This document shows, in pieces, positions 6,907 through 64,000 of a DNA stretch of 64,000 nt. The position numbers and the translations under genes are program-made. The notes under the pieces were generated by a model, which had not been told where the DNA came from, ran no database searches, and saw nothing but the letters and a program-made list of their open reading frames with translations. Where the stretch lies: contig JAFXTY010000050.1 in the NCBI GenBank assembly GCA_017535435.1, positions 5,211-69,210 of the forward strand, in the 5' to 3' direction. The stretch is from Spirochaetia bacterium (GTDB lineage: Bacteria > Spirochaetota > Spirochaetia > CADAEX01). Every line of letters starts with the position of its first letter. Position 1 is the first letter of the stretch.

Positions 6907-7069
6907 ACTTGCCTCCTGATTATTGATTTATATTTTGAAACTGTACGTCTGGCCATGTCGATTCCTCTCTCCTTGAGTATATCAGATATCTGCTGGTCGG
7001 AGAGATGTTTATCTTTGTTTGTCTCTAGAATTTCTTTTATGATTTCCAGCACGCTTTCCCCTGGGATGG
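6903..7069 (-). other. rpoN: C-terminal part of rpoN (HTH plus RpoN box) encoded in an alternate frame
   Basis: Frame B reads ...GESVLEIIKEILETNKDKHLSDQQISDILKERGIDMARRTVSKYKS, i.e. the sigma-54 C-terminal HTH and the RpoN-box ARRTVxKYR. It lies out of frame with the upstream 386-aa ORF. Confidence 0.7.
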
Positions 7070-17782: not shown

Positions 17783-17842
17783 TGCAAGTATATAGCTTTT
17801 TTTACTGGAAAGGAAGTCAATTAACTGTTATTATATAATATT

Positions 17843-19966: not shown

Positions 19967-19983
19967 TGAAGGAAGGAGCTTTT

Positions 19984-48555: not shown

Positions 48556-51500
48556 ATGCAGAGCGTAGGAATCAATATTGGTTCTTCCAGCTTGAAGATA
48601 GCTTGCGTTGCAGATGGTAAGCTTTTGTGGGCTGAGAGTATTCCCCACGAGGGCAATTTCCACGATGCGGCAGAAAAAATATTAGAAGCTCATCCCATTG
48701 AAAAAGGGGCAAGAGCATTGGCAACCGGAACAGAGGGACGTTTTCTCTTCTCTGTCAACAAGACTGTGGAGCCTCTCTGTATTGAAGAGGCCCTGAAGGA
48801 GCTTAAGCTCAAGGCAGATGCCATTGTCTCCCTGGGCGGTGAGGATCTGGTAGTCTACACCCTCAATGACGAGGGAAGAATCATAAACAACTTCTCCGGC
48901 AGCAAGTGTGCCTCCGGAACTGGAGAGTTCTTCAAGCAGCAGCTTGCCCGTATGGACATGAAGCTGGAGGATGTGAACGGTGTTCCAGACACAGCCCGTA
49001 TACTTGAGCTTTCAACAAGATGCTCGGTATTCATGAAGAGCGACTGCACCCACCGGCTCAACAAGGGCGAGGCAACTAAAGAGGATATTGTCCTTTCCCT
49101 CAGCAATGTGATGGCTGTGAAGGTCATCGACTTCCTCAAGAAGGCAAGAATAAGCAAGGGCAAGGTCATCCTTGTGGGTGGAATCACCAGGAACCGCCAT
49201 ATCATCCGGTTCATCAAGGAGAAGGCTCCTGATATCGAATTTATCATCCCGGAGGAGGCATCTTACTTCGAGGCCCTGGGTGCCGCATATCTGGCAGCTA
49301 AGGATGGAAGCCCGATGCCGGAGCCAGGCAAGCTCATCACAAAGAATAAGGTAAGCTTCACCCACCTTGAGAGCCTTAAGACACAGCTTTCCAAGGTCAC
49401 ATACTTCCCTGCAAAGCATGGCAAGACAGTTGCAGGCAGAGAATACATACTGGGAGTGGACGGCGGTTCCACAACCACCAAGGCATGTCTTATCGACATG
49501 GAGACAGACGAGATAACTGCATCCTTCTACGGCCGTACCCATGGCGACCCGGTGAAGGCTCTCAAGCAGTGTCTCCAGGAAATCAAAAAGCAGGTCAAAG
49601 CCGATATCGGTGACGGCAAAATCAATATAACACTGGCATCAACCACAGGCTCATCCCGGGAGATTCTGGGAGTGTTCCTGGAGACACCGGCTGTATACAA
49701 CGAGATTATCGCCCACACCGAGGGAACCACATACTTCTCCAACGATGTGGACACTATCTTCGAGATCGGCGGTCAGGATGCAAAATATGTGCTCCTCAAG
49801 AACAAGGTTCCTATCGACTATGCCATGAACGAGGCCTGCTCTGCAGGTACAGGATCCTTCCTTGAGGAATCTGCCTCCGGAGACCTTAACATTGCCCATG
49901 CATGGGAGATCGGGGACATTGCCCTTGAGGCAGAGAACCCGCTTAAGTTCGGCGAGCACTGCTCTGCCTTCATCAACTCAGATATCCGCAAGGCTATCCA
50001 GCAGGGTGCAACACGGGCCGACATCACAGCAGGTATTGTCACATCCATAGTCTCCAACTACCTTAACAGAGTTGTGGGAAACAGGACTGTGGGCAACAAG
50101 ATATTCCTCCAGGGTGGAGTTGCCAAGAACAAGGCTATCCCACTGGCCTTCGCACTCCTTTTAGGCAAGGAGATTCTGGTGCCGCCAGATCCTGAGCTCA
50201 TGGGCTGCTTCGGCGTAGGCCTTCTGGCAAAGCAGAAGTTCAAAGAGGGGCTTATTTCCAAGGCAACCTTCGACATCGACAAGATCCTTGAGACTGAGAT
50301 CATCTATGAGAGCGAGTTCAAGTGCAAATCCTGCGAGAACCAGTGCCCTATCCGTATCCTCAAGGTAAACGGCAACAAGTATATGTTCGGCGGCCGGTGC
50401 TCCAAGTACACCAACTCCAGGAAGAAGAAGCTGTTCGACGAGTCCAAGATCCGGAACTTTGTGGATGAGCGCAACGACCTTATGTTCAAGACCTTTGCTC
50501 CGGACGAGGCCAGCTTTGTGAAGAAGAGGGACTACACTGTAGGTATTCCCAAGGCATTCTCTGTCTATACGCTCTATCCCTTCTACTCCTGGTATTTCCA
50601 CCAGCTGGGAATAAAGACAGTGCTTTCAGACAAGGTGCCCCACTCCGGTGTTGCCAGGGTTGAGTCCACCTACTGTTTCCCTGCGGAGATTGCCCACGGT
50701 GCGGTTCAGGATATCCTGGACAAGCATACAGACTACATATTCCTGCCTCATTACCGGGACATGCCCAGCCACGAGAGCGACATACACGCAAACTTCTGTC
50801 CTATTACCCAGAGCCTGCCATACTACATAAGAAAGGCTTTCCCCGAGATTCCCGAGGAGAAGATCCTTTCACCTGTAGTAAGCTTCAGAACTGGACTGGA
50901 CAAGGCTATAGAGTTCTTTATCCAGTTGGGAGAGAAACTGGGATTCACTGCTGCCGAAGCTAGAGATGCCTTCAATGTGGCACTTAAGAAGCAGAATGAG
51001 TATCAGGAGGCTGCATTCAAGCTGGGCGAGGAAGCTTTGGAATATGCCAAGAGTCAGAAACAGCCTGTCATTGCACTTCTGGGCCGTCCATATAACGCAT
51101 TTGCCAAAGAGGCAAACATCGGTATCCCACGGAAGTTCACAAGCCGTGGCAACACAGTCATTCCGTTTGATATCCTGCCTATAGGCAACAAGAAAATATT
51201 CCCGAATATGTACTGGTACTATGGCCAGAAGGATATGCACACTGCCTTCAATATGAAGGAGAACCCTAACATATTTGTCACCTGGGTCAGCAACTTCTCC
51301 TGTGCACCAGACTCTTTCATGCTCCACTACCTTAAGTGGATAATGGGGACCAAGCCGTTCCTGGTGCTGGAGCTGGATTCCCACTCTGCAGATGCAGGTG
51401 TGGACACCCGTGTTGAGGCATTCCTGGATATTATCGAGGGCTACCGCCTGAAGTACAGCGGAAAGGACGAGGAGCGCTATGACAACGGCCTCCGGTTTGT

Positions 51501-52833
51501 GAACGACGGCAAGAGCGAGCCCCATCTCCATAACGAGCATACAGGTGAGGATATTGCTATCCGCGGCAACAAGAAGGTGAAGATTCTCCTCTCCAACATG
51601 GGTGATATCTCTGCCAGGTCCATGGCTGCCACAGCCCAGTCCCTGGGCTTCAATGCCGAGGCTGTTCCTATTCCGACACCACGGACACTGCGTTTTGCCC
51701 GGAACCATGCATCTGGAAAGGAGTGTGTTCCTTCCCTGCTGCTTCTGGGTTCAATGCTTGAGTATTTTGCATCTGACAAATACGACAAGAGTACCACATA
51801 TATGATATTTGTCCCCATAACTACAGGGCCATGCCGTACAGGCCAGTACTTTGTCTTCTACCAGAACCTGTTCCGGGACCTTAGGCTTGAGAACGTGGTT
51901 GTATTCACCTTGAGTGCAGACCACTCATATTCAGAACTTGGGGCAGGATTCTCCAAGATTATGTGGTGGGCATTGTGTGCCGCCGACTATCTTAAGGATA
52001 TTCAGACAGTTCTCCGTACCTGTGCCAAGGACAGAACATATGCCATGGCCGAGGTTCAGGAAGGTGTCAAGTATGTCCTTGAGGAGGCCAGAAAGAGCTG
52101 GAAGAACATAGTTCCGGCCCTTAAGGTGTTTGCTGACAGGGTCAAGAAAATTCCGCTAAAGAAAGATCCAGCCACCTGTCCGAAGGTTCTGGTTGTGGGC
52201 GAAATCTATGTGCGCCGTGATGACTATGCAGTGGACGAGATTATCAGATCCTGTGCAGATAAAGGCATTATAGCCAAAGTTTCCGGCATAGGGGAGTGGA
52301 TCCACTATACCGACTTTGTGCAGGAGTACTTCCTTAAGCGGGAGCGGACAGTATTCCCATGGTATAAGAAGATATTCAGCGACAACACCAAAAAGCTGCT
52401 TGTTCTTAAGCTTGCAGAAGCCTGGAAGGAGTCTACCGAGGCTAAGATAAGAGAGGCACTGGAGCCCTGTGGCCTGATACCAAAGTCGCCTCACGATATG
52501 AAGAAGATTATGGCCAATACCCTCAAGTTTGTAAGCTACGAGCTTAACTCCGAGATCTCCATCTCCAGCGGTGCAGCTGCTACAGCTATGGAAGAAGGTT
52601 ATTCCGGCGTTGTTAATATATCTCCATTTGCATGTCTTATCGGACGTGTCATCGAAGGGCTCTATATGCCATATGCACGGCAGCACAAGTATCCAGCTAT
52701 CTCCATAGAGATTGACGGCAACCAGCTGCCTCCGAACATTATCAATAAGCTTAACATCTTTATGCTCAATGTCATCAGGTACAAAGAGAATCCAGGTGTA
52801 GCAGAGCTGATTGATTACGAGGATGAGAAGTAG
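48556..52833 (+). CDS. giant CoA-substrate-specific enzyme activase (two BadF/BadG/BcrA/BcrD ATPase domains) fused to a 2-hydroxyacyl-CoA-dehydratase D-component-like domain
   Basis: 1425 aa. Two acetate/sugar-kinase-fold ATPase domains (MQSVGINIGSSSLKIA..., second LGVDGGSTTTKACLI...). Cys pairs and a dehydratase-like C-terminal region of about 800 aa. Confidence 0.8.
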   Translation: MQSVGINIGSSSLKIACVADGKLLWAESIPHEGNFHDAAEKILEAHPIEKGARALATGTEGRFLFSVNKTVEPLCIEEALKELKLKADAIVSLGGEDLVVYTLNDEGRIINNFSGSKCASGTGEFFKQQLARMDMKLEDVNGVPDTARILELSTRCSVFMKSDCTHRLNKGEATKEDIVLSLSNVMAVKVIDFLKKARISKGKVILVGGITRNRHIIRFIKEKAPDIEFIIPEEASYFEALGAAYLAAKDGSPMPEPGKLITKNKVSFTHLESLKTQLSKVTYFPAKHGKTVAGREYILGVDGGSTTTKACLIDMETDEITASFYGRTHGDPVKALKQCLQEIKKQVKADIGDGKINITLASTTGSSREILGVFLETPAVYNEIIAHTEGTTYFSNDVDTIFEIGGQDAKYVLLKNKVPIDYAMNEACSAGTGSFLEESASGDLNIAHAWEIGDIALEAENPLKFGEHCSAFINSDIRKAIQQGATRADITAGIVTSIVSNYLNRVVGNRTVGNKIFLQGGVAKNKAIPLAFALLLGKEILVPPDPELMGCFGVGLLAKQKFKEGLISKATFDIDKILETEIIYESEFKCKSCENQCPIRILKVNGNKYMFGGRCSKYTNSRKKKLFDESKIRNFVDERNDLMFKTFAPDEASFVKKRDYTVGIPKAFSVYTLYPFYSWYFHQLGIKTVLSDKVPHSGVARVESTYCFPAEIAHGAVQDILDKHTDYIFLPHYRDMPSHESDIHANFCPITQSLPYYIRKAFPEIPEEKILSPVVSFRTGLDKAIEFFIQLGEKLGFTAAEARDAFNVALKKQNEYQEAAFKLGEEALEYAKSQKQPVIALLGRPYNAFAKEANIGIPRKFTSRGNTVIPFDILPIGNKKIFPNMYWYYGQKDMHTAFNMKENPNIFVTWVSNFSCAPDSFMLHYLKWIMGTKPFLVLELDSHSADAGVDTRVEAFLDIIEGYRLKYSGKDEERYDNGLRFVNDGKSEPHLHNEHTGEDIAIRGNKKVKILLSNMGDISARSMAATAQSLGFNAEAVPIPTPRTLRFARNHASGKECVPSLLLLGSMLEYFASDKYDKSTTYMIFVPITTGPCRTGQYFVFYQNLFRDLRLENVVVFTLSADHSYSELGAGFSKIMWWALCAADYLKDIQTVLRTCAKDRTYAMAEVQEGVKYVLEEARKSWKNIVPALKVFADRVKKIPLKKDPATCPKVLVVGEIYVRRDDYAVDEIIRSCADKGIIAKVSGIGEWIHYTDFVQEYFLKRERTVFPWYKKIFSDNTKKLLVLKLAEAWKESTEAKIREALEPCGLIPKSPHDMKKIMANTLKFVSYELNSEISISSGAAATAMEEGYSGVVNISPFACLIGRVIEGLYMPYARQHKYPAISIEIDGNQLPPNIINKLNIFMLNVIRYKENPGVAELIDYEDEK

Positions 52834-53689
52834 AAAGTTTTTGATACTGCTGGTTCTTTGCCTGGGAATATTGTTTTCTGCCCAGGCAGAGCCGGTAGTA
52901 AGTTATCTGGGGCCACAGGGCACCTATTCTCAGGAAGCCTGTCAGGTTTTCTTCGGTCAGCAGGGAGAATTCCTTCCTTTTGAGAGCGTAAGTAAAGCAG
53001 TTCAGTCTCTGGTCGAGGGTAAATGCGATTATGCGGTGATTCCTCAGGAGAACACAATCGGTGGTGCTGTCCTTGATTATGTTGATGTGCTGATAGCTCA
53101 TAAAGAAGTCTATGTCTGTGGCGAGGTGGAGCTCCTTATAAGTCAGAACCTTTTAGCCATTCCTGGCACAAAGCCGAGTGATATTAAAGAAGTTTTCTCC
53201 CATAAGCAGGGCATTATACAGGGTCGGGAATGGCTTGATAAAAACATTCCTGATGCAAAGGTGACCGAGGTCTCAAGCACGGCGGAAGGGGCACGGCTGG
53301 TTTCTGAAAAGGGGGATTCATCTTATGCGGCTATTTCATATGCAGCCTGTGCTGGTGTGTATGGCCTTGAGATTCTTGCCCCGGGTATCCAGAACAATAA
53401 CAGCAACAAGACCCGCTTCTATGTGCTTTCCGTAGAAAAGCCTGTATCCGGATCTGGTGAGAGGATTGCATTTATTGCTTCGGGAGATGCAAAAAGTCTG
53501 CCTGCTCTTATGGCAGATATGAAAAAGAAAAAGATGACACTGGTCACAATTCACGACTGCCCCAAGAAGACAGAACTGGGAGAATATTATTACCTTATTG
53601 AATGTACCGGATCATATAAAAGCTATCAGAAGCTGGCAGGAAAAAGCAGTTTTGACCTGCGCTACCTGGGCAGTTTTGATGTACGCTGA
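52823..53689 (+). CDS. prephenate dehydratase (PDT plus ACT-like domain) with N-terminal signal peptide
   Basis: Start at ATG 52823 (MRSRKFLILLVLCLGILFSAQA|EP). PDT signatures LGPQGTYSQEA, NKTRFYVLS and STAEGAR. C-terminal ACT-like segment. Confidence 0.7.
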   Translation: MRSRKFLILLVLCLGILFSAQAEPVVSYLGPQGTYSQEACQVFFGQQGEFLPFESVSKAVQSLVEGKCDYAVIPQENTIGGAVLDYVDVLIAHKEVYVCGEVELLISQNLLAIPGTKPSDIKEVFSHKQGIIQGREWLDKNIPDAKVTEVSSTAEGARLVSEKGDSSYAAISYAACAGVYGLEILAPGIQNNNSNKTRFYVLSVEKPVSGSGERIAFIASGDAKSLPALMADMKKKKMTLVTIHDCPKKTELGEYYYLIECTGSYKSYQKLAGKSSFDLRYLGSFDVR

Positions 53690-53694
53690 CTAAC

Positions 53695-54249
53695 TTATCT
53701 CTCCTTTTCCGATACAAAGCAGGCTACCAGCCCGTAGATAAGTGTAGGGCGGATCCAGATTTCTGTAAGCATATAGTTGGTATATTCATTGATTGGATTG
53801 AGGTAGATGACATAGTTGTACAGTCCTGCAATGGCTGTATCAATGATGAAAAGAAGCCACAGATTGCGTTTGGTGTAACTCTTCCAGTCCTTGCGGGCAT
53901 AGAAGAAAGTCAGCAGCAGGAGCAGCATCACCGATAGCGTAAGGCAGACCAACTGGAGTGGGTAACTTTCCAGTGGCGGCGGAAAAAGGATATCCCGCAG
54001 CAGTACTGTAATGCCTACGAATACCGAGCTCCAGTAGTTGAAACGCTGGCTGTCCAGCCGTCTAAAGAAGTACAACGCCATCATCACCAGGCAGGCGATA
54101 TAGCACAGGTTAAGCACCAGTTCGGGCCATGCCTCGGCCAGACCGAAATGCTTTATTCCATAGAGCATTATGCCTACCGAGAGCACAGCCGCTACAGCGG
54201 TAAATCCAATGTCTATGATCTGTGATTTCTTTCTGAATCTTGTTTCCAT
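53695..54249 (-). CDS. hypothetical polytopic membrane protein
   Basis: 184 aa with about 5 predicted TM helices. Last gene of the minus-strand operon, 1 nt after the RsbW-like gene. Confidence 0.45.
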   Translation of the reverse strand: METRFRKKSQIIDIGFTAVAAVLSVGIMLYGIKHFGLAEAWPELVLNLCYIACLVMMALYFFRRLDSQRFNYWSSVFVGITVLLRDILFPPPLESYPLQLVCLTLSVMLLLLLTFFYARKDWKSYTKRNLWLLFIIDTAIAGLYNYVIYLNPINEYTNYMLTEIWIRPTLIYGLVACFVSEKER

Positions 54250-54250
54250 G

Positions 54251-54670
54251 CTATCTTGAAAATACTTTTGTCATATTAAGGATATTCTTACCATCCCTGT
54301 ATGTATAGCTCATATCATCAACTTTCTGCCTGGAATAAAAAATGCCAAGACCGCCTATAGGCTTGTCTTCCACAGCAAGGCTTGTATCCGGCCCGTCTTG
54401 TTCCAGCGGATTGAATGGTATTCCGCTGTCTGTAATGGTGATACAGGCTTTGTTTTCTTCCGGGTAGAGGAGAAAGTTTATGGCAACGTTTCCACCGTTT
54501 TCGCCGTAGGCATAGCTTGCTATGTTTATGAAAAGCTCTTCCAGCACCATCTTTATCTGCATGAACTCTTTTTGGGGACATGAAAGCAGAGAAAGGCTTT
54601 CTGTTACGAAAGCAAACACTTTGTTGAGATTTTCTTTCTGTGCTGCTATTTCCAGTATTTTTTCAATCAT
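54251..54670 (-). CDS. RsbW/SpoIIAB-like anti-sigma regulatory Ser kinase (HATPase)
   Basis: 139 aa. MVLEELFINIASYAY (N-box-like), ITDSGIPF (G1) and GGLGI (G2) motifs. Confidence 0.7.
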   Translation of the reverse strand: MIEKILEIAAQKENLNKVFAFVTESLSLLSCPQKEFMQIKMVLEELFINIASYAYGENGGNVAINFLLYPEENKACITITDSGIPFNPLEQDGPDTSLAVEDKPIGGLGIFYSRQKVDDMSYTYRDGKNILNMTKVFSR

Positions 54671-54681
54671 AATTACACCTC

Positions 54682-56133
54682 CTATGCCATATGAATAAGC
54701 AGCATGGTGATGTCGTCAAACTGCTCTGTCTGAGATGCAAATGCATCCACATCCTGTTTGATTCCCAAAAGGAAAGATTCCTCTCCCCGGTTGTCCAGCC
54801 TGTTCAGCGTTGCAATCAGGCGGCTGTCTCCGTATAGACCGCCTTCTGAATTGTGAGCTTCGGTGACGCCGTCGGTGTATAAGAAGATAGTGTCACCGCT
54901 CTGCAGCTCCAGTGTCGATTCCTTGTATACGGTGCCTTCCATGCCGGCCAGCATAAGCCCATGACGCTTCTTTAAGAATTCAAAGTCCCCTCCGGATTTT
55001 GCAAAACATGGCGAATTATGCCCGGCATTGGTATAAGTGATCAGGTGGGTCTCTGTATCCAGAATTCCTATCCAGGCGGTGGCAAACATCTCTTCTGTAT
55101 TGTTCTCGCATAACATGCGGTTAACATCGGTAAAAATCTCGGCTGTAGAACGCTTCATGGAGGCATGGTCTTTTATCATAGTCTTTACAGTCATCATAAA
55201 GAGGGCAGCTGGTACACCTTTTCCTGATACGTCGGCTATTACAAAGCCGATATGGTTGCTGTCTATCTCGAAAAAGTCGTAGAAATCGCCACCCACTTCC
55301 TTTGCAGTATCCATGGATGCGTATATCTGGACATCCGGGTGGGACAGCAGGATATGGTTTACCGAGGGGAGCGAGCCGTACTGTATATTTGCCGCAATGT
55401 TCAAATCGGCTTCCACGGTGGCTATCCGGCTCTGGCTTTTTACCACAGTATCGGTGTTAAGGTTAGTGATAAGGTAGACAAGAGGATAAGAAAACATACA
55501 GCTGGTAATAAAAAAATCATTATTGCCTTTTAAAATATAATACTGAATAGAATAGATAAAAAAGATGAGCACAAGAAAAATAGTAAAGTGGATTGCAGTA
55601 CGATAGTTTTCTGTGTGTTTTTTTCGTTCTTTGATTATAGTTCGTGCTACCAGAATAATTGGAGTCAGGGTATACAGGAAAAATACTGGTGCAAAAATAT
55701 AGTTATAGGCAGGCAGGAACTGTATCATATTCTCTTCATCCACCATGTAGAGAAAGTGAGTCCAGGGCATAGTAATGCAGAGCAGCATCACTATGCAACC
55801 AGGGATAATATATAATAGCCATACTTTATGGATGACCAGGCCGAACCGTTCATGTACATAGCAGTTTATGAGGGAGCAGATTATAAAAAGCGTCATGGTA
55901 TACAACCCCCATATCAGGTAGTTGAGTGCCACCATTATGACTCCCCCTCCAGTCACAAACCCTGAAAACGCATCTAAAAGGGACATAAGAATGATTGAGA
56001 GCAGCAGAAGGGTAAGCTTGTCGGAAAAACCCATTTTATACAGCACAATGTTGTTGTAGAGAAGAATGAACAGCAGAAAGAGCGAGAAGATAACCAGCTC
56101 ATAGTAGAGGGCATCTGTTGTCAGAATATCCAT
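54682..56133 (-). CDS. PP2C-family Ser phosphatase (RsbU/SpoIIE-like) with N-terminal polytopic membrane domain
   Basis: 483 aa. About 8-10 TM helices, then a PP2C core (GGDFYD, VIADVSGKG, LYTDGVTEA metal-binding Asp motifs). Confidence 0.8.
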   Translation of the reverse strand: MDILTTDALYYELVIFSLFLLFILLYNNIVLYKMGFSDKLTLLLLSIILMSLLDAFSGFVTGGGVIMVALNYLIWGLYTMTLFIICSLINCYVHERFGLVIHKVWLLYIIPGCIVMLLCITMPWTHFLYMVDEENMIQFLPAYNYIFAPVFFLYTLTPIILVARTIIKERKKHTENYRTAIHFTIFLVLIFFIYSIQYYILKGNNDFFITSCMFSYPLVYLITNLNTDTVVKSQSRIATVEADLNIAANIQYGSLPSVNHILLSHPDVQIYASMDTAKEVGGDFYDFFEIDSNHIGFVIADVSGKGVPAALFMMTVKTMIKDHASMKRSTAEIFTDVNRMLCENNTEEMFATAWIGILDTETHLITYTNAGHNSPCFAKSGGDFEFLKKRHGLMLAGMEGTVYKESTLELQSGDTIFLYTDGVTEAHNSEGGLYGDSRLIATLNRLDNRGEESFLLGIKQDVDAFASQTEQFDDITMLLIHMA

Positions 56134-56157
56134 ATAACATCTCCTTCTTTTTAATCG

Positions 56158-57891
56158 CTATCCTGTTACCATGAAAGTATTGCGGTTGTAACTCATGGTG
56201 GTAAGGTACTTCTTGTTGCCCTTGAGTGCATCCATATAGCCGGAGACCACAAAGGCAAGGCAGGATACTGCATTTGCATCCTCATCTGCCAGATTGAACA
56301 GCACGCCGTCGTCCTTGGTGATAATCTGTACGGCATTGTCCCGCAGAATGACGGTACATTCTGCTGAGATAAGCTGCTTTCCTGAGCCGTTTTTCTCGTA
56401 GATAAGCATGTACAGATCCTCGATCAGATGCTTGCAGCGGAAAATTATTTTTTTTCTTATACCAGCAGCTGCAAGGAAAACCTCAACCTGCTTCTGAGTA
56501 GCAATGACATTCTCTGGTGTCACTGTAAATTCGTAGAAGGCAATATTGCCGGCATCAGTTTTTTCTTTAAGCAGCAGGGGCCAGTTTGTCTTTCCATATC
56601 TTATGCGTACATACAGCATTGTAATGATGTATGCCACCAGCGGGGAGAGTGCGGATCCGAAAAACAGTCCGTAAAGGCCGAATAGTTTTCCACAGATTAT
56701 ACAGACAGGAACAGCCACCAGTGCATCCCGCATACCGCAGATTGCAACCCCCAGCATAATTCTGTCGATAAGCAGGTAGTAGGAACTCAGCAGATACAGC
56801 ATACTTATGGGGACAAATCCCAGTGCCATGATACGGATGCCATTTGTAGCATAGGCTGCTGCAGGAGAGTTTGTAACGCCGTAGATTCTGGCTATAAAGG
56901 GAGCTAGGAGGACAAATAGGGCGAACATAAAAAGTGCCTCAAGGATGGCAGCCTTCTGGGCCAGAGCATAGCATTTTTTTACACCATCATAAGTCTCTTC
57001 TCCCAGATATATATTCATCAGCGGAGTGATTGCCTCGCCGATGCCGTCAAAAACCAGCTGGAATTCCTTTATGAACAGGATAAATGCCACTAAAATAAGC
57101 ATTTCTGGACCATAGGTGCTGACTATAAAGCGGTTGATGACTACGGTGAATATTCCAATGAACAGGTAGGAGCTGGCATCTATGGCGCTGTACTTGGCAG
57201 CAGTGGCCAGGCCGCGGAAAGAAAAGTAAATGCCTGGCTTGAAGGATGAGCTTGGGCGGAAAAAATGCATACAGGAGATAGCCAAGGAAAGTGCAGTCCC
57301 GGCAAAGGATGCAAAACCGATGCCCGCAATCCCCCAGAAAGGGGCAAGGGCGATAGAAAGCACCAGGTTTCCAACCATCTGTGCTATGTTGGCGGCAAAG
57401 CTTATGCTTTCATCGCCGTCAGTCAGCACCATCTCTGTCATAAGCATATTCAGGGGAGACAGCAGAATGGCACAGCTGTACCAGAAAAGATAAGGCTTTG
57501 CCAGCAGGAATACAGTCTGTTCCGGCTCATAAAAGAGCAGGTAGCGGTCTCCAAAAGTCAGGAGCATGGCAAACAGAATGCCGCCTGTCATTATTGCGGC
57601 AGTAAAACCCAGCGAAAACCAGCGCCCGGCAGCTTTCTGGTCAAATTCCCCCATGGCCTTGGCATATAGAATCGGAATTCCTATAGAAATAAGGCCTGCG
57701 AAAAACGAGGCGGCGGAATATGCCGGAGCTACCAGGCTGATAGCGGCAACAGCATCCTTTCCCAGCGCAATTCCTGCGATTATTGAATCTGAGATCAGAA
57801 GTGCGGTAACCACTACCATGGTCATGGTACCTGGAAGCAGCAGCGAGATAAATTTTTTCTGCAGAAAGGTCGGGGCAGACTTTATTTCCAT
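56158..57891 (-). CDS. MATE-family efflux transporter fused to a C-terminal RsbW-like (anti-sigma kinase-fold) domain
   Basis: 577 aa. 12 TM MATE core of about 450 aa. The C-terminal 125 aa FYEFTVTPENVIATQKQVEVFLAAAGIRKKIIFRCKHLIEDLYMLIYEKNGSGKQLISAECTVILRDNAVQIITKDDGVLFNL align by eye to RsbW (EMKVPAQPEYVGIIRLTLSGVASRMGY...EIEDLKIAVSEACTNAVQHAY...EVSI...EDRLEVIVADEGDSFDF). No GGLGL box. Confidence 0.7.
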   Translation of the reverse strand: MEIKSAPTFLQKKFISLLLPGTMTMVVVTALLISDSIIAGIALGKDAVAAISLVAPAYSAASFFAGLISIGIPILYAKAMGEFDQKAAGRWFSLGFTAAIMTGGILFAMLLTFGDRYLLFYEPEQTVFLLAKPYLFWYSCAILLSPLNMLMTEMVLTDGDESISFAANIAQMVGNLVLSIALAPFWGIAGIGFASFAGTALSLAISCMHFFRPSSSFKPGIYFSFRGLATAAKYSAIDASSYLFIGIFTVVINRFIVSTYGPEMLILVAFILFIKEFQLVFDGIGEAITPLMNIYLGEETYDGVKKCYALAQKAAILEALFMFALFVLLAPFIARIYGVTNSPAAAYATNGIRIMALGFVPISMLYLLSSYYLLIDRIMLGVAICGMRDALVAVPVCIICGKLFGLYGLFFGSALSPLVAYIITMLYVRIRYGKTNWPLLLKEKTDAGNIAFYEFTVTPENVIATQKQVEVFLAAAGIRKKIIFRCKHLIEDLYMLIYEKNGSGKQLISAECTVILRDNAVQIITKDDGVLFNLADEDANAVSCLAFVVSGYMDALKGNKKYLTTMSYNRNTFMVTG

Positions 57892-58187
57892 TCGATGTCA
57901 AAAACGCTGTCAAGGCAGGTGCTTTCCAGCACGTCCTTAAAGTTCTCTCCTACGTTGATAAGTTTCATAGAAGCCTTTTTCTGCTTGAGCGTCTTGAATG
58001 TAGAAAGCAGTACGCGGATTCCGGCAGAGGAGACATAATCACAGTCGGTGAAATCCAGCACCAGGGCGGTGATCTTATCAATCTGTGTACCGATAACGGC
58101 AGATAATTCCGGGCTGGTAAGCGTATTCAGCTCACCGGAAAGAGCAATTGTCTGTTTTCCATCAGAAACAGTAGATGTTAATTCCAT
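57882..58187 (-). CDS. STAS-domain anti-sigma-factor antagonist (SpoIIAA/RsbV-like)
   Basis: 101 aa. LDFTDCDYVSSAGIRVLL with a conserved phosphorylatable Ser (DYVSS) and the STAS fold pattern. Confidence 0.8.
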   Translation of the reverse strand: MELTSTVSDGKQTIALSGELNTLTSPELSAVIGTQIDKITALVLDFTDCDYVSSAGIRVLLSTFKTLKQKKASMKLINVGENFKDVLESTCLDSVFDIEWK

Positions 58188-58202
58188 ATATTTCCTCCAG
58201 CT

Positions 58203-61199
58203 TCAGCCATCACAGATACGATATAGCATATTTGACTGTTTTGCAAGCAAGTTGATTTGTCTGGACGACAGTGTGATATCAGGATTTTCTGCCGTCATTA
58301 AGAGCATTTCACAGGAAGCAGCAAATAGGTTTACGAACCTTTCCATACTTTCCCGTCTGTACTGGGCTGAGTTATAATCAAGAATAAAACCGAATCCGTC
58401 TCTGCTCTCAAGTATCTCAATCTCAGGTGAATTGCCGCAGCCACAGGGGAATTCATCGGTCTCCAAGGGCTCTGCCGTATTCTTCATGAAACTGCGGTAT
58501 TTGTCACATTCGTACATATCTCCCTGATATAAAAGACATAAGACTTCATGCCCTTGGTACAACCCGATTCTGTCAAAGTAGGAGATGCTTCCATGGGCAA
58601 TACTTTCAAGAACCTGCTCCTTTGCCTGCATAAGCAGATCTTTCAGCTTGGTTTTATCATCAATAGTGAATGCAATAGGAAAGTCCTTATAAAAGAGTCC
58701 GATGGAACGCTGTACAGAGACATCTTCCCGTCCGTTCCATACCCAGGAGAGCATGACATTCCGGGCTTTGTCATACATAGCAATTGCCAGGGCAACAGCT
58801 GCAGTATAGAATTCATTCTTCCCCAGTCCATAATGCTGGCAGAGGGATGTGACACGATCTTTTGAGAATTTAAAATCACCCTCTATACTGTCCAGGATAT
58901 TCTTATCTGTGTCAAAATCGGTCCGGGGCCGGGTATGCCAGCCATCTTTGTCATAGCGGTTTTTAAAGTACGCAACATCATGGGAATAAGTTTCGGTGTT
59001 CTTGAAGTCTGCTTCTTTCTGCATAGCCTGGTAGGTGAAATCGGCCCCTAGTTCGGTGCCGCCCAGGCTTAGAGCAATGTCGTCCATAAGAATTTCCATA
59101 GAAGAGCCATCTGCAACAACATGGTATACATCAAAAAGAAAAACGTTCTGCTCCGGAGTGCTTATAATCCGGGTTCGGAAAAGGGGGCTGCCGTCAAGCA
59201 GGAATGGTCTTACAAAGTGTTTTTCGGCATCGGCAAGTTCTTCCATGTTCATGGTCTCCACAGGTATTTCCTTGTCAAAACCAGCCTCATAGCGCAGATA
59301 ATAGGTGTCACCCTCTTTCTCGATGACGCTCAAGAGTGCAGGATGGGCAGAAAGGGCTTTCCTGACAGCCTGGGCGAACTGGCTCAAGTCCACATTGTCC
59401 GAAAGTATGGCCTTATACGCAAGGTTGTACATGACTGTTCCTGGAGCCGACAGTTCACAGCGGAGCATATAAAGCTGAATATCGTTTAATGGTGCTTTTG
59501 TCAGCCTGTTTTTTCCCTGTACACTGGCAGATGTTTGAGCCATAAGAGCATCCACTGCTTCTGCAATAGCCCGCACAGTCCGTTTCTCAAAAATAAGAGG
59601 CACGGACAAAGGAAGAGTATTGCATTTGACCAGGAGATTCATGGCGCATATACTGTCACCACCAAGGGCAATAAAATCATCATCAATACCGATTTGCCCT
59701 ACATTTCCAGATTCGTTCAGAACTTTCTTAAAAGCATCACAAAGCATTTTCTGTGTCTTAGTCTCTGGTGGCACATATTCAGCATGATTCTCGCTGAAAG
59801 CTGGTGGTGTCAGTGATTTTTTGTCTATCTTGCCGTTTGTGTTCAGGGGCATTTTCTCAAAGTGGATAAAGTATGAAGGAATCATGTACTCGGGAAGAAG
59901 CTTTTTTAAGGATGTGCGGATTGTCTCCTCAGGAACAGCAGTCTCCTTCTGGTAATAGGCACAGAGAAAATGAATTCCCGTGTTCTCAAAAGCCTTTACA
60001 GCTACAACCTTTGTTCCCAGCACTTTTTTAAGTGCAGTCTCCACCTCGGCAGGCTCCACACGGTTTCCGTTGATCTTGACCATATCGTCTGCCCGTCCCA
60101 GAATGTATAAAAGTCCGTCTTCTCCCCGTCTGGCAAAGTCCCTGGTGCGGAAGAATTTTTTTCCTCCTATCCAGATGAATGCTTTATCATTCTCTTCCTG
60201 CTGGTTCAGGTAGCCCCGGAAATAGGGCAGGTAAAGGCAGATTTCCCCTTCTTTTTCAGAAACCTTGCCGTCATCAAGAAGCACCATATCGGTATAGGAG
60301 CATCCAGACCCAATCGGCGTGTTTGAATATGGCCTGTCGATCACAAAGCTGCAGGCTGTGGACATAAGCTCTGTATTGCAGTAGAGATTGCGGAAGTCGA
60401 ATCTGTCGCTATAGGTATCGCTTACCCGTTCGGAAGAAAGCATAATAACCTTGGGTGAAAGGCTTTTGTTTTCAGAAAGGGGTTTTATCATCGAGGCTGT
60501 CAGGAACATTGCGTCAATCCTGTGGTCTTTTAAAAACTGCATGTAAAGCATAGGATTTTTGACGACAGCATCGGAAACTATATAAATTGTAACGGCATCG
60601 TAGAGCATACTCACATTGATAATGATAAAAGCAGAAAAAGTTACCGGCGCCACATTTGCAAAGCGGAGGGAATCGTCCTTCATGGTATAGGGTTTCACAA
60701 CTTCCTCGGCTGTACCTGTTGTCGTAAAACGGTACACACCATATTCTTCTACAACTCCTTTCGGCTTTCCTGTGCTGCCTGATGTGTAGATGATAAAGGC
60801 AAGGTCATGCTCGTCGCTCTCTGCCCAATCTGCTTCTGGAAGGGGCTTGTAGCTCATGGCCTTATCCCAGTGCATACTGTCAAATACCAGTCTGGCACCC
60901 GAGTCCTTAAGCACATGCTCTATGCGCTCCTGGCCCATGGCATCGGAAATGGGTACAAAGGCACAGCCGCATTTTATTACCCCAAGTTCCACAGCAACAT
61001 ATTCCATGGATTTTTCCAACTTTATGGCAACCAGTTCTTCTTTTTGGAGCCCCAGTGTTTTTAAGTATGCGGCAACACGGCTTGAATAATCATTCAGCTG
61101 GGCATAGGTGGTTTTACGCTCGCCGTCCCGGTCAACTATAGCGGCGCGTCCAGGGTATTTCCCTGCCACTTCTGATAATCTATGTAAGAATGGAATCAT
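58203..61199 (-). CDS. single-module nonribosomal peptide synthetase, domain order A-T-C
   Basis: 998 aa. Adenylation cores IIYTSGSTGKPKGV, GRADDMVKINGNRVEPAEVE and NGKIDKK. Carrier-domain Ser in IALGGDSICAMNLL. C-terminal condensation domain with YHVVADGSSM (HHxxxDG). Confidence 0.8.
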   Translation of the reverse strand: MIPFLHRLSEVAGKYPGRAAIVDRDGERKTTYAQLNDYSSRVAAYLKTLGLQKEELVAIKLEKSMEYVAVELGVIKCGCAFVPISDAMGQERIEHVLKDSGARLVFDSMHWDKAMSYKPLPEADWAESDEHDLAFIIYTSGSTGKPKGVVEEYGVYRFTTTGTAEEVVKPYTMKDDSLRFANVAPVTFSAFIIINVSMLYDAVTIYIVSDAVVKNPMLYMQFLKDHRIDAMFLTASMIKPLSENKSLSPKVIMLSSERVSDTYSDRFDFRNLYCNTELMSTACSFVIDRPYSNTPIGSGCSYTDMVLLDDGKVSEKEGEICLYLPYFRGYLNQQEENDKAFIWIGGKKFFRTRDFARRGEDGLLYILGRADDMVKINGNRVEPAEVETALKKVLGTKVVAVKAFENTGIHFLCAYYQKETAVPEETIRTSLKKLLPEYMIPSYFIHFEKMPLNTNGKIDKKSLTPPAFSENHAEYVPPETKTQKMLCDAFKKVLNESGNVGQIGIDDDFIALGGDSICAMNLLVKCNTLPLSVPLIFEKRTVRAIAEAVDALMAQTSASVQGKNRLTKAPLNDIQLYMLRCELSAPGTVMYNLAYKAILSDNVDLSQFAQAVRKALSAHPALLSVIEKEGDTYYLRYEAGFDKEIPVETMNMEELADAEKHFVRPFLLDGSPLFRTRIISTPEQNVFLFDVYHVVADGSSMEILMDDIALSLGGTELGADFTYQAMQKEADFKNTETYSHDVAYFKNRYDKDGWHTRPRTDFDTDKNILDSIEGDFKFSKDRVTSLCQHYGLGKNEFYTAAVALAIAMYDKARNVMLSWVWNGREDVSVQRSIGLFYKDFPIAFTIDDKTKLKDLLMQAKEQVLESIAHGSISYFDRIGLYQGHEVLCLLYQGDMYECDKYRSFMKNTAEPLETDEFPCGCGNSPEIEILESRDGFGFILDYNSAQYRRESMERFVNLFAASCEMLLMTAENPDITLSSRQINLLAKQSNMLYRICDG

Positions 61200-62341
61200 C
61201 TGATAGATCCTAAGGTGTCTTTGAAATAATCCAGGACAGCTTTAAGTCCGCACTCCAAATCGGCCTTGTTCAAAAGCAGGTTTACCCGGAAGCAGAATCG
61301 GTGTTTTAAGTCAAGGCACTGCATAACACCAGGATAGGCAAAGTAGCCTTTATCTTTCATCAGCATCTTCATGGCATCGACGAAGAGCCTGTCATCAATC
61401 GTACGATCAATAAAAATCATGGCGTAATGCCCGGACACTTCCGAAGAAACTGTGGCAAAATCATAATCAGACAGTATATGCCTGACCAGCGAAAGATTTT
61501 CAGCCCAGAATTGATTATAGATGGAAAGACATTCATCAAAATTAGGTGAGATAAAATGATGATATCCCTGCCGGCATGAATAGTTGATAGAGCCTCCAAA
61601 GCTGTCATTCAGACTGTTGATTGCATCGTAATATTTTTTATGCACCACCAGGACAGAGAATTTTATTCCCTGGATACCAAGCGCTTTATGGGGGCTGTAT
61701 ATGTAGATAAGGTTTTCCTGAATCCCGAATGTCCGGGAAAGCTCCCTGCCGTTTATGCACAGGGATTCGTCTAAGATTACAAGCTTACCTGCATTCAGAA
61801 GTTTCTGAATGCCCTCTTTTACCCGCCGTTTGAAATAAATACTGCAGGAATTTAGAGGAGAAGTGAACCAGAAGGCATTGCAGTCAGACTGCAGAAGGAG
61901 GTCTGCATCAAATGATTCATTTATGTTCTCCATGAAGTCATCGAATATTGTGTAGTCCATTTTTAAGGCATCACAGCAGTCTGGAACGGAAAAATAGTAG
62001 GGGGTGATGATTCCAAGCTTTGCAGCCATTTCTGAAAGAAGAATTGAGACCATAGAAATGGAGAGGGTGCTCTGGGTCAGTGCATGGAAAAACGCATTTT
62101 TACAGTCGTCGGCAGAAAATCCCAGCTTGTCCGCAATTATCTCTTTTACATCCTCTGGAAAGTAATAATAGTAGTCGAATACATCCTGCTCGTTGTCAAC
62201 CTTCAGAATCTTTTTGATTTTTTCTTTATATTCAGAACCGGTATTCCAATAGGAAAGGTTTACAGGAGGCTGCTCCCGGCATTCTTTTTCTGCCTCATCC
62301 AGTTCCATCTCAATTTCATAATCAGTCATATAATTTTTCAT
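61196..62341 (-). CDS. PLP-dependent fold-type I enzyme (aminotransferase/decarboxylase-like), family unresolved
   Basis: 381 aa. LVILDESL (acidic residue before the PLP region) and YSPHKALGIQGIKFSVLV (S.HK Schiff-base Lys context). Similarity judged by eye only. Confidence 0.45.
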   Translation of the reverse strand: MKNYMTDYEIEMELDEAEKECREQPPVNLSYWNTGSEYKEKIKKILKVDNEQDVFDYYYYFPEDVKEIIADKLGFSADDCKNAFFHALTQSTLSISMVSILLSEMAAKLGIITPYYFSVPDCCDALKMDYTIFDDFMENINESFDADLLLQSDCNAFWFTSPLNSCSIYFKRRVKEGIQKLLNAGKLVILDESLCINGRELSRTFGIQENLIYIYSPHKALGIQGIKFSVLVVHKKYYDAINSLNDSFGGSINYSCRQGYHHFISPNFDECLSIYNQFWAENLSLVRHILSDYDFATVSSEVSGHYAMIFIDRTIDDRLFVDAMKMLMKDKGYFAYPGVMQCLDLKHRFCFRVNLLLNKADLECGLKAVLDYFKDTLGSIR

Positions 62342-63482
62342 ACTCCGTGTAGGTATAGCTTTTAATAGGCTTTATTCCAGACATTCTACTATATAAGAGG
62401 ATATCTGGAAAGTTGATTCCATTGAAATAGTTGACTTGTGCAAAGGAATATGAACCCATGTCGCCGAAAATGATTTTATCTCCAGGCTTCAGGGGCGATG
62501 AAAAGTCGTATTCCCCGAACACATCCCCGGAAAGGCAGCTGTTACCTGCAAGCAGATAGCTGTATTTCTTTTGGTCAGCGCGTCCTTTTTCTGGATAGAC
62601 CACAGGGAGCTGGTAATAGTTTTTAAGGACATCAAGGGCATGGCAGGAAAGGGATGTGTCAAGAATTGCTATGTCCTTTTCGTTGTGCACTATGTCCAGT
62701 ACAGTAACAACTAGGAAGCCTGCCTCCATAACCAGATATTCACAGGGCTCTATGTAGGTCTTTAAATGATATTTTGTATGCAGGATATCCAGATTCGCCT
62801 GGAAATGGTAAAAGTCAAAATCATCCTCGGTCAGGGCCTGCCCTCCCCCTAAGTTTATCCAGGAGACATAGGGAAAATAGCCAGAGAACTTTTCTATCCC
62901 GGCAGAAAGGAGATTGTTGAAATCTTTGGAAGAATTTCCGCATAGGGCATGGATATGGAAGCCGGAGATACGGTCCATGATATCTGGCTCAACTTTAGAA
63001 AGAGCCTCTTTTGTAAGTCCGAACCGGGAATAACGGCCACAGGGATTGTAGACAGCTTCTTTTACTGCATTGATTTCTGGATTAAGACGCAGGGCAAAAT
63101 TATTCTTTGCAGTCCCCACCTGATTGAAAACTGAAATCTGCTGTGGAGAGTTAAGGACAATATGGGAACAGATGGTGGCAATCGCCTCGGCATCTTCTGC
63201 CTTGTAAGCTGGGGTGTGAATATGAACTTCCTTTCCCAGGCCACTTCCCAGCTTAGCCTCAAAAAGCCCCGATGCAGAGGTCCCTTCTACATAAGGCTTG
63301 ATTAAAGGAAATGCCTTTGCCAGTGGAAAACCTTTCATGGCAAAAAGGAGTGAAAGCCCTGCTTTGTCAGATTTTGCCTTTATAGCCTTCAGGTTTTTTG
63401 TGAGAATATCGGTATCAATAATGTAGCAAGGTGTTTTGACCTTTTCTGTCCAGCCTGCAAAGGTGCCAAAATCAGAAGTCAT
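62322..63482 (-). CDS. carboxynorspermidine/carboxyspermidine decarboxylase-like (fold-III PLP decarboxylase)
   Basis: 386 aa. N-terminus KTPCYIIDTDILTKNLKAI resembles the NspC ...TPYYLIDE..L..NL start. LFAMKGF PLP-Lys region. Family-typical length. Confidence 0.65.
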   Translation of the reverse strand: MTSDFGTFAGWTEKVKTPCYIIDTDILTKNLKAIKAKSDKAGLSLLFAMKGFPLAKAFPLIKPYVEGTSASGLFEAKLGSGLGKEVHIHTPAYKAEDAEAIATICSHIVLNSPQQISVFNQVGTAKNNFALRLNPEINAVKEAVYNPCGRYSRFGLTKEALSKVEPDIMDRISGFHIHALCGNSSKDFNNLLSAGIEKFSGYFPYVSWINLGGGQALTEDDFDFYHFQANLDILHTKYHLKTYIEPCEYLVMEAGFLVVTVLDIVHNEKDIAILDTSLSCHALDVLKNYYQLPVVYPEKGRADQKKYSYLLAGNSCLSGDVFGEYDFSSPLKPGDKIIFGDMGSYSFAQVNYFNGINFPDILLYSRMSGIKPIKSYTYTEYEKLYD

Positions 63483-63997
63483 TTAATGTCCAGACCCTCT
63501 TTTTTGATGCACTCAACTTCTGGAACGCCATAGAGCAGCTGCACCAATGCCTTGGCATACTGGAAGCCGAAATCAAAGTCGCCGATATATCCGCCGGATG
63601 TAGTCACATAGTAGAACTTCTTTGCCTTGCACAAACCCTTAGGGTAACCTTCGGGGGTGTAGCGGAAAGTGATGCCACATACAGATGTGGCCTCGAAGTA
63701 AAGCTTTATCAGAGCTGGAAAGGAAAGATCCCAGTATGGAGCAGCCATTACTATGATATCAGCATCGGCAAACTGTTTGGCATACCGGAAAAACTGGTCG
63801 CTGAAATCATTTGCGGCAAGGGCTTTATCCCGTTTTGCAATATCAGCAATAGTAAGTGGTCTTAAGTTCTCATCTGCCAGATTCAGTACTTCTGCTCTCT
63901 CCCCAGTCTCTTTCTCCAGCTTTGAAAGAAGGTCTTCTGCCAGTTTAAGTGTCCGTGATTCCGGGCGTATGCAGGCATTTATAAACAATGTGCTCAT
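63479..63997 (-). CDS. flavodoxin-like-fold NAD(P)H-dependent FMN reductase / azoreductase-like protein
   Basis: 172 aa. TLFINACIRPESRT N-terminus and the MAAPYWDLSFPALIKLYFE pattern of the Flavodoxin_2 family. First gene of the minus-strand operon as seen in the window. Confidence 0.6.
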   Translation of the reverse strand: MSTLFINACIRPESRTLKLAEDLLSKLEKETGERAEVLNLADENLRPLTIADIAKRDKALAANDFSDQFFRYAKQFADADIIVMAAPYWDLSFPALIKLYFEATSVCGITFRYTPEGYPKGLCKAKKFYYVTTSGGYIGDFDFGFQYAKALVQLLYGVPEVECIKKEGLDIK

Positions 63998-64000
63998 AGT

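Follow-up and report, generated by a model that had tools for sequence, protein, structure and literature searches.

The 64,000-nucleotide stretch analyzed here (the window, from contig JAFXTY010000050.1 of a Spirochaetia bacterium) ends in a tightly packed run of minus-strand genes around a small nonribosomal peptide synthetase (NRPS). A first-pass annotation had described a four-gene set at 58203-63997, coding for a flavoprotein, an NspC-like decarboxylase, a pyridoxal phosphate (PLP) enzyme and the NRPS, and these four minus-strand open reading frames (ORFs) are present as stated, with overlaps of 4, 20 and 4 nt between consecutive genes that indicate translational coupling. The set is not limited to four genes, however. 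The same-strand run continues past 58203 with five further genes down to 53695, with four gaps (15, 24, 11 and 1 nt) and one overlap (10 nt) between them, and in the whole run every intergenic gap or overlap is at most 24 nt. The edge of the window lies three bases upstream of the flavoprotein start codon, and in two related loci, L006 (NRPS 97% identical) and L096 (79%), two more same-strand genes are found directly upstream of the flavoprotein gene: one of the D-2-hydroxyacid-dehydrogenase family (2-Hacid_dh) and one YbdL/methionine-aminotransferase-like gene, which overlaps the flavoprotein gene by 4 nt in both loci. The operon thus consists of nine genes inside the window and two upstream genes known from sister contigs. 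Above all, the earlier coordinates leave out the most conserved partner of the NRPS, a MATE-like protein with a partner-switching module. The features of the operon within the window are:

63479..63997, minus strand: flavodoxin-fold FMN-dependent NAD(P)H oxidoreductase, azoreductase-like, 172 aa (PF02525, PF03358)
62322..63482, minus strand: NspC-family fold-type III PLP decarboxylase of a cluster-specific clade, 386 aa (TIGR01047)
61196..62341, minus strand: orphan fold-type I (class I/II aminotransferase-like) PLP enzyme, 381 aa
58203..61199, minus strand: adenylation-thiolation-condensation (A-T-C) NRPS, 998 aa (AMP-binding, PP-binding and Condensation, in that order)
59790..61199, minus strand: adenylation domain of the NRPS, aa 1-470 (PF00501, 159 bits)
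59535..59762, minus strand: thiolation (carrier) domain of the NRPS, GGDS with Ser516 (PF00550, 28.5 bits)
58203..59522, minus strand: terminal condensation domain of the NRPS, aa about 560-998, YHVVADG (PF00668, 113 bits)
57882..58187, minus strand: STAS-domain anti-sigma-factor-antagonist-like protein, 101 aa (PF01740, TIGR00377)
56158..57891, minus strand: MATE-like membrane protein, 577 aa (PF01554 plus a C-terminal domain)
56587..57891, minus strand: MATE/MOP-superfamily membrane domain of the 577-aa protein (PF01554)
56161..56586, minus strand: C-terminal SpoIIAB/RsbW-like domain (GHKL anti-sigma kinase fold) of the same protein, residues 436-577 (hhalign, AF2, Foldseek)
54682..56133, minus strand: membrane-anchored PP2C (SpoIIE-type) serine phosphatase with a multi-transmembrane N-terminal region, 483 aa (PF07228, 164 bits)
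54251..54670, minus strand: RsbW-like serine kinase/anti-sigma factor, 139 aa (PF13581, 68 bits)
53695..54249, minus strand: small multi-pass membrane protein, 184 aa, final gene of the run

The MATE-like protein is the constant partner of this NRPS. Family members of 28-97% identity fall into 12 distinct neighbourhoods, namely the window (with L006/L007), L001-3, L004/5, L008-10, L013, L091 to L096 singly, and GCA_016648615.1, whereas L097 was found via the PLP enzyme instead. In 12 of 12, which belong to Spirochaetia, Fibrobacter and Lachnospiraceae and so span three phyla, the NRPS gene lies directly beside a MatE-like gene coding for 550-600 aa, and a hidden Markov model (HMM) of the MATE C-terminal domain matches all 16 family loci. 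Genes for a STAS protein and a SpoIIE phosphatase stand at the cassette in L001-7, L091, L092, L097 and GCA_016648615.1, while L013 and L093 have a SpoIIE phosphatase gene nearby and no STAS gene in the stretch examined; the phosphatase is fused to a kinase domain in L092 and has a 5TMR-LYT sensor in L013. The PP2C phosphatase recurs beside the cassette in Fibrobacter as well as Lachnospiraceae loci. In GCA_016648615.1, the order is three stand-alone A-T-C genes in tandem (998, 988 and 968 aa), then genes for DUF6198, MatE, STAS and SpoIIE proteins. As a control, we used about 75 ordinary NRPS loci of actinomycetes, pseudomonads, cyanobacteria, myxobacteria and others, which came from a contig scan with generic NRPS motif patterns, and none of them matched the HMM of the STAS protein or that of the MATE C-terminal domain. 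The only matches beyond the family loci were in L015, a human-gut Blautia metagenome-assembled genome (MAG), and L052, a Clostridia MAG. Both encode a three-module A-T-C-A-T-C-A-T-R NRPS of about 2990 aa that ends in a reductase (R) domain and is flanked by MatE::HATPase_c_2 and STAS genes (L015:5138-17341, L052:3540-15311), to which L015 adds an RsbW-like protein and a phosphopantetheinyl transferase (PPTase). Because the control loci gave no match and these two did, the export/switch cassette is, judged by these profiles, specific to NRPS loci of gut anaerobes and not bound to one NRPS architecture.

The membrane part of the 577-aa protein matches MatE (PF01554) with 54.3 bits against a gathering threshold (GA) of 24.9, in the N-lobe only, and the NCBIfam MATE models score far below their cutoffs. 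Some homologues also match PF03023, the MurJ family, and this MATE/MOP-type protein may be either an exporter or a flippase. Its C-terminal domain (436-577), searched alone, had no Pfam match at E <= 10 and nothing meaningful in a profile search of the PDB. Aligned by hhalign with the RsbW-like kinase of the window, it gave an E-value of 2e-4 in the expected register. An AlphaFold model of the domain, built with 19 homologues, was of moderate confidence (pLDDT 77), and in a Foldseek search with this model the top 13 PDB hits were all SpoIIAB, RsbW or UsfX (E 1e-4 to 7e-3, TM 0.55-0.65), several of them from complexes with STAS partners. In distant MATE homologues, PF13581 (HATPase_c_2) is found at the same position, with 43 bits in L013 and 24 bits in L015. 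Our alignment A5 of the C-terminal domain shows an invariant N-box Glu and invariant Asp and Gly residues of the G1 box; in the window protein and its close family, the N-box Asn, which binds Mg-ATP, has given way to Leu or Thr, and a G2 box (GxGxG) is missing. As the N-box Asn and the G2 box are lost within a SpoIIAB-like fold, the domain is apparently a pseudokinase that keeps the STAS-docking fold. In the literature searched, we found no description of a fusion between an anti-sigma-like domain and a MATE/MOP protein whose gene goes along with NRPS genes. A second MatE protein (577 aa) with a related C-terminal domain is encoded in L008:18992-22964 beside Peptidase_M15_4, a 395-aa fusion of STAS and APH (kinase) domains and Y_phosphatase3, which looks like a differently built switch beside a MATE protein.

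The operon contains a complete switch set, i.e., a STAS protein with a phosphorylatable Ser, a GHKL Ser kinase and a PP2C phosphatase. The STAS protein matches PF01740 with 52.6 bits and TIGR00377 with 64 bits, the latter above its cutoff, and its motif S53-S54-A55-G56 is invariant across five loci; we take this SSAG to be the equivalent of the phospho-Ser motif of SpoIIAA. In the 139-aa RsbW-like kinase, the N-box Asn and a GGLG G2 box are both kept (alignment A5). The operon lacks a gene for a sigma factor, and the sole one found in the window codes for a sigma-54 (7037-8197), about 46 kb off. When L096:12912-15187 is compared with window positions 53695-58187, the insertion site is the same and the NRPSs are 79% identical, while the switch genes differ; in this comparison the switch genes appear to be recently gained or lost.

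The A-T-C order of the NRPS, which had been proposed at first pass, was confirmed by the domain matches, and its motifs are intact. In an alignment of 14 sequences with 35-79% identity (A1), the adenylation motifs A3, A5, A7, A8 and A10 are kept, SGSTG.PKG and K457 being invariant, and the A10 Lys517 (GrsA numbering) is present in the window. In the carrier motif LGGDS, the residues G513, D515 and S516 are invariant, and PF00550 scores above GA. In the condensation motif YHVVADG, conservation is at least 90% for H693 and D697 and complete for G698; the window protein has a Tyr in place of the first His of HHxxxDG and keeps the catalytic second His. With these A, carrier and C-domain motifs conserved, the NRPS looks catalytically complete. 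We read the specificity code of the A domain at ten positions, for which the GrsA numbering was verified on PDB 1amu, and obtained SAIFMSLSTK, with Ser at position 235. The Asp235 of A domains binds the alpha-amino group of the substrate (Conti 1997, Stachelhaus 1999), and it occurs in 0 of 119 full-length homologues of this NRPS. The A domain thus probably takes an acid that lacks a free alpha-amino group, so that of the acyl or aminoacyl product that had been suggested the acyl version is favoured and the aminoacyl version is unlikely. The code differs by clade: Spirochaetia and Fibrobacter have SAIF[MA]SLSTK, Lachnospiraceae have VGYFYGIYPK or similar codes, a glycan-associated clade has IGYCHTAYLK, and a Treponema clade has VVDFYACPVK. 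It is the SAIF[MA]SLSTK clade that goes with the orphan PLP enzyme, and the other clades have other codes and other neighbours.

The condensation domain alone was searched by phmmer against all PDB chains at E <= 0.01. The best solved match was the elongation C domain of LgrA with 59 bits, followed by bacitracin synthetase 3 (BacC), TycC, PvdL and epimerization domains, and a VibH chain was not recovered. No carrier, thioesterase (TE) or R domain follows the terminal C domain in the operon, and because of this the simplest reading is that the terminal C domain would free the tethered acyl group onto a free nucleophile. A 540-aa A-T didomain protein (AMP-binding plus PP-binding) is encoded in L006:1-1200, about 9 kb upstream of the NRPS and thus beyond the window, and could conceivably be the supplier of a carrier-bound partner.

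Between an NspC and a LysA identity of the decarboxylase, the latter of which the first-pass annotation had named as refuting its proposal, the outcome is clear. The protein belongs to the carboxynorspermidine/carboxyspermidine decarboxylase family (CANSDC/CASDC), with 347.2 bits (E 7e-104) against TIGR01047 (nspC) and end-to-end alignments with the solved CANSDCs 9eaf (296 bits) and 3n29 (265 bits), to which the catalytic motifs were aligned and found to be kept (PLP Lys, HxH, GGG, CxxGD and YS). LysA is ruled out, as the lysA model TIGR01048 gave 78 bits at a cutoff of 298, and the diaminopimelate decarboxylases in the PDB gave at most 43 bits; lysine-biosynthesis genes are absent from its vicinity. 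The nspC score, however, stays below the equivalog cutoff of 409.05. Among 1.84 billion representatives of 50%-identity clusters, identity to the closest full-length relatives is 46, 43 and 43%, and no other exceeds 38%, whereas the decarboxylase of the Fibrobacter-type cluster L091 is 73% identical, a value above that of every other protein of the cluster. Comparison with 122 family representatives, at positions that are at least 70% conserved, revealed ten changed positions: F110L, G130A, Y222F, G247C, A249Y, P283L, E287K, P292L, V348A and K349Q. Through these, EPGEA becomes EPCEY (G247C, A249Y) and HMPD becomes HALD (P283L), and E287K and K349Q are charge changes. All ten are common to the copies in the window, L091 and L096. 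Each is found in at most 10% of the 122 representatives, and P283L, E287K and P292L in at most two sequences each. A carboxy(nor)spermidine dehydrogenase of the saccharopine-dehydrogenase type was found neither in the operon nor among the scanned large ORFs of the window, nor in L006, L091 and L096; such a partner in the neighbourhood of NspC is usual but not obligatory. On account of the sub-cutoff score, the ten substitutions, the cluster-linked clade, the lack of a dehydrogenase and the absence from equivalent clusters, the enzyme is probably a divergent, cluster-linked NspC paralogue rather than a housekeeping NspC.

We are confident that the 381-aa protein is a fold-type I PLP enzyme, and the earlier call was right in this respect, with the conserved Lys, Asp and Arg all present. 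It has no Pfam match, even at E <= 10, and no NCBIfam match; the threshold of PF00155 is not reached, and some of its Fibrobacter homologues have a precomputed PF00155 match. In a 37-member alignment, D191-E192, P217-H218-K219, R352 and N354 are invariant and S216 is nearly so, and alignment with HisC identifies the pyridine-N Asp, the Schiff-base Lys and the carboxylate-binding Arg of class I aminotransferases among them. Only 68 relatives exist among 5.8 billion proteins, and all that are named come from Spirochaetia/Treponema or Fibrobacter, including F. succinogenes; the homologue that neighbours the NRPS in Fibrobacter is 60% identical. The enzyme may act as a transaminase, lyase, cyclase or decarboxylase. 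The flavoprotein matches PF02525 with 82 bits and PF03358 with 44 bits, all NCBIfam azoreductase models remain below cutoff, and its best PDB matches are FMN-dependent NADH-azoreductases (E 1e-16). Its gene is found only in the Spirochaetia versions of the cluster. The pair of PLP enzyme and NRPS recurs in Fibrobacter and Spirochaetia, with the decarboxylase present or not, and the trio of decarboxylase, PLP enzyme and NRPS in L091.

Taken together, we consider it roughly an even chance (about 50%) that the operon is a compact unit for the biosynthesis, export and regulation of a small N-acyl amine, i.e., an amide, with export coupled to the partner switch. The A domain would place a carboxylic acid without a free alpha-amino group on the carrier, and this acid may be a 2-oxo or 2-hydroxy acid that derives from the two enzymes encoded upstream, the aminotransferase and the D-2-hydroxyacid dehydrogenase. 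Amide formation with a free amine at the terminal C domain would then release the acyl group. The amine would be a pathway-specific one, made by the orphan PLP enzyme and the divergent NspC-family decarboxylase, and not bulk spermidine or norspermidine, and the flavoprotein would contribute a redox tailoring step. The product would leave via the MATE/MOP-type membrane protein, whose SpoIIAB-like pseudokinase domain would dock the unphosphorylated STAS protein. As the phosphorylation state of the latter would be set by the RsbW-like kinase and the membrane-bound PP2C phosphatase, export, or signalling from the exporter, would be tied to an envelope signal. The direction may be either way, the switch gating the transporter or the transporter signalling to the switch.

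Several observations weigh against this model. The code SAIFMSLSTK matches no nameable substrate code, and among solved structures the C domain comes closest to ordinary elongation C domains, with very low scores. The decarboxylase could also act after the condensation. Since F. succinogenes-type clusters with the same A-domain code have no decarboxylase, and Lachnospiraceae clusters lack both PLP enzymes, L004 having none of the accessory enzymes, the amine-building role would be clade-specific at best. The glycan-gene subclade described below suggests flipping of a lipid-linked product instead of soluble export. The binding of the STAS protein to the MATE domain we infer from fold and synteny alone. 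Finally, L096 keeps the biosynthetic genes and the MATE gene with its C-terminal domain and has none of the STAS, PP2C and kinase genes, from which it follows that the switch may be either dispensable or encoded elsewhere. We more tentatively propose, at less than even odds, a further-reaching version: the MATE/MOP protein with its own pseudokinase would be a direct output or sensor of the STAS/PP2C/RsbW switch, the whole would constitute a mobile regulated-export module beside NRPS genes of gut and rumen anaerobes from at least three phyla, and the amine of the amide would come from a neofunctionalized NspC enzyme together with the PLP enzyme.

The amide model has its closest precedent in bacillamide biosynthesis, in which the tryptophan decarboxylase BmdA supplies tryptamine for condensation by the terminal C3 domain of BmdB (A1-PCP1-Cy2-A2-PCP2-C3), and the FMN oxidase BmdC does the tailoring (PMC8795117). 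Common to both would be a PLP decarboxylase that prepares a free amine, a terminal C domain that releases the acyl or peptidyl group from the carrier onto it, and a small flavoprotein that tailors. The parts differ, as judged by family annotation and not by sequence comparison with the Bmd proteins: the decarboxylase of the window is a fold-type III enzyme of the NspC family and BmdA an aromatic amino acid decarboxylase, the flavoprotein is azoreductase-like and BmdC belongs to the nitro-FMN-reductase family, and the window has a single-module NRPS whose A domain lacks Asp235 and adds both an orphan PLP enzyme and an exporter that has a partner switch. By description, the nematophin- and rhabdopeptide/xenortide-type NRPSs of Xenorhabdus and the glidonin system with its putrescine-adding terminal C domain (PMC10587159) are similar as well, being short NRPSs whose last C domain takes a free biogenic amine; they differ in host phyla and accessory genes. 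Nematophin has been summarized as the product of a condensation between an alpha-keto acid and tryptamine (PMC6935581), and such a keto-acid condensation would fit an A domain without Asp235.

With regard to regulation, the switch genes resemble the SpoIIAA/SpoIIAB/SpoIIE and RsbV/RsbW/RsbU systems in having a STAS protein with a phospho-Ser, a GHKL kinase and a PP2C phosphatase, and the proposed docking partner has the SpoIIAB/RsbW fold. Unlike in these classical switches, no sigma factor is encoded at the locus, a MATE/MOP protein of the 12-transmembrane class carries the anti-sigma-like domain as a fusion, this docking domain lacks the N-box Asn and the G2 box, and the module travels with NRPS genes. 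Partner switching with a non-sigma output has a counterpart in HenR/All4160 of Anabaena (bioRxiv 10.64898/2026.04.08.717354). The gut Clostridia reductase loci L015 and L052 share the export/switch cassette and differ in NRPS architecture and release chemistry. A family of gut Clostridia NRPSs for dipeptide aldehydes and pyrazinones was reportedly described by Guo et al. (Cell, 2017), and L015 and L052 may belong to it. For the gene cluster or the cassette, we found no description in the searchable literature, whether for rumen Fibrobacter/Treponema NRPSs or for MATE proteins with anti-sigma antagonists, which supports the view that the pathway is undescribed.

An alternative with a reversed order of steps, which we regard as rather unlikely, would be similar to FslC and rhizoferrin: the C domain would first acylate an amino acid or carboxy-amine, and the NspC-family enzyme would then decarboxylate the N-acylated product. 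The bacillamide precedent runs the opposite way (PMC8795117). There is a weak match of the decarboxylase to the model of the N-citrylornithine decarboxylase FslC (E 2e-6). E287K, K349Q and the altered EPGEA and HMPD motifs would fit a substrate without a free distal amine, and the decarboxylase is an optional addition to the core of PLP enzyme and NRPS, as would be expected of late tailoring.

The original proposal of an N-acyl-polyamine was that the NspC-like enzyme supplies norspermidine or spermidine and that a VibH-like terminal C domain acylates this polyamine, to yield a siderophore fragment or a signal. We now consider this quite unlikely. VibH acylates norspermidine with 2,3-dihydroxybenzoate (DHB) from VibB, and in both cases a condensation-family enzyme would move a carrier-bound acyl group to a free amine; the absence of a carrier downstream of the terminal C domain, the clear family membership of the decarboxylase and its conserved catalytic motifs all favour such a scheme. 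VibH is a free-standing C protein, however, and not part of a fused A-T-C protein, and the logic of VibH applies to the architecture only, since the PDB search returned elongation C domains (at most 59 bits) and no VibH-specific similarity. DHB genes, which had also been reported as missing from view, are indeed absent among the scanned large ORFs of the window, and the operon has no siderophore uptake genes. The decarboxylase shares the fold and the catalytic motifs with NspC (TIGR01047; 9eaf, 3n29), and in this part the proposal was correct; the supply of norspermidine or spermidine is doubtful, given the score below the equivalog cutoff, the ten altered positions including E287K and K349Q, the lack of a dehydrogenase partner in the scanned ORFs of the window and the related loci, a clade that is tied to the NRPS cluster, and the absence of the gene from F. 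succinogenes-type clusters with the same A-domain code. The cluster can be assigned neither to the VibH/vibriobactin system nor to plain NspC pathways.

It is also improbable that the system modifies the cell envelope, in which case the C domain would acylate a membrane-anchored or lipid-linked acceptor, the MATE/MOP protein would be a flippase comparable to Wzx, MurJ or GtrA-like proteins, and the switch would tune surface remodelling. This idea draws on L094 and L095, a subclade of 37% identity. In L095:6406-15997, a PgfS/ArnC-like undecaprenyl-phosphate sugar synthase of glycosyltransferase family 2 (GT2) and a YdjC-type deacetylase precede the MATE-NRPS pair, and in L094 (8190-16000) as well as L095 the pair is followed by two GtrC-like membrane glycosyltransferases (PF19528); L094 sits in a larger polysaccharide cluster, and L095 has no other flippase gene. 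For these loci, the context suggests N-acylation of a lipid-linked amino sugar and subsequent flipping. The MurJ-family matches of some MATE homologues point in the same direction, and polysaccharide synthesis is known to be under the control of partner switches. In addition, an envelope-related gene set of DUF1329 (TP_0789/LolA-like), MMPL and DUF1302 adjoins the cassette in two Fibrobacter-type contexts and one of Treponema (L001:16470-22179, L008:1-3987, L097:4106-9656), with an unannotated protein of about 330 aa in L001 and L097; this set may be the outer-membrane leg of export in diderms. In the clade of the window, however, genes for glycosyltransferases or lipid carriers are missing, and the A-domain code is unlike that of the glycan clade. 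Moreover, the same set of MATE::HATPase_c_2, STAS and RsbW proteins flanks the reductase-ending NRPSs of L015 and L052, and three-module NRPSs with a terminal reductase typically yield soluble small molecules. That the decarboxylase, the PLP enzyme and the flavoprotein are merely housekeeping genes beside an unrelated NRPS can practically be dismissed, as, although every protein comes from a large superfamily of general metabolism, the genes overlap by 4, 20 and 4 nt, PLP enzyme and NRPS recur together in Fibrobacter and Spirochaetia and with the decarboxylase in L091, and the 68-member PLP family is seen only in Spirochaetia/Treponema and Fibrobacter lineages.

As to the setting of the operon, its last product, the 184-aa membrane protein, has no family match in Pfam or NCBIfam. 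L006 and L007 encode homologues of 97% identity, and L096 has a gene for a 182-aa protein at the same place after the MATE gene. In a promoter and terminator scan of 52.5-64 kb, the counts equalled the shuffled expectation. The G+C content of the operon (54000-64000) is 0.44-0.47, compared with mostly 0.50-0.53 at 36-52 kb, and this difference, together with identities of 50-73% to Fibrobacter proteins, would fit a horizontal acquisition. The named homologues belong to rumen or gut 'Spirochaetia bacterium' MAGs. A Lachnospiraceae MAG contains an NRPS and a MATE protein (MBR4543098.1 and MBR4543100.1) on a 5.8-kb contig that fall into the same 90%-identity clusters as the near-identical homologues of the window, which points to either mis-binning or a very recent transfer. 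Convergent with the operon, the plus strand encodes at 48556-53689 a 1425-aa CoA-enzyme activase-like protein (BcrAD_BadFG+DUF2229) and then a protein of the prephenate dehydratase family with a hydrophobic, signal-like N-terminus. Further away, at 10164-24412 on the plus strand, there is an aryl-polyene/flexirubin-like lipid cluster with an AMP-binding::ApeI-dehydratase fusion, an MMPL/RND-like protein, two ketosynthases and an O-methyltransferase.

In summary, the most interesting feature of this locus, the MATE/switch module, lies just outside the stretch to which the first-pass annotation had drawn attention. If the STAS protein docks on the MATE domain, this would represent a new class of partner-switching output, a transporter instead of a sigma factor or an enzyme, and it would constitute a post-translational control point at the export of a natural product or at the flipping of a lipid-linked one. 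New chemistry for the formation of amines may be found in the cluster-specific NspC paralogue and in the orphan PLP family with its 68 members. The system, which comprises three to five enzymes, could be reconstituted in full in vitro. Carriers of the cassette include Fibrobacter succinogenes, rumen Treponema/Spirochaetia, Lachnospiraceae and a human-gut Blautia, and the resulting metabolite or metabolites could be of importance in consortia that degrade fibre.

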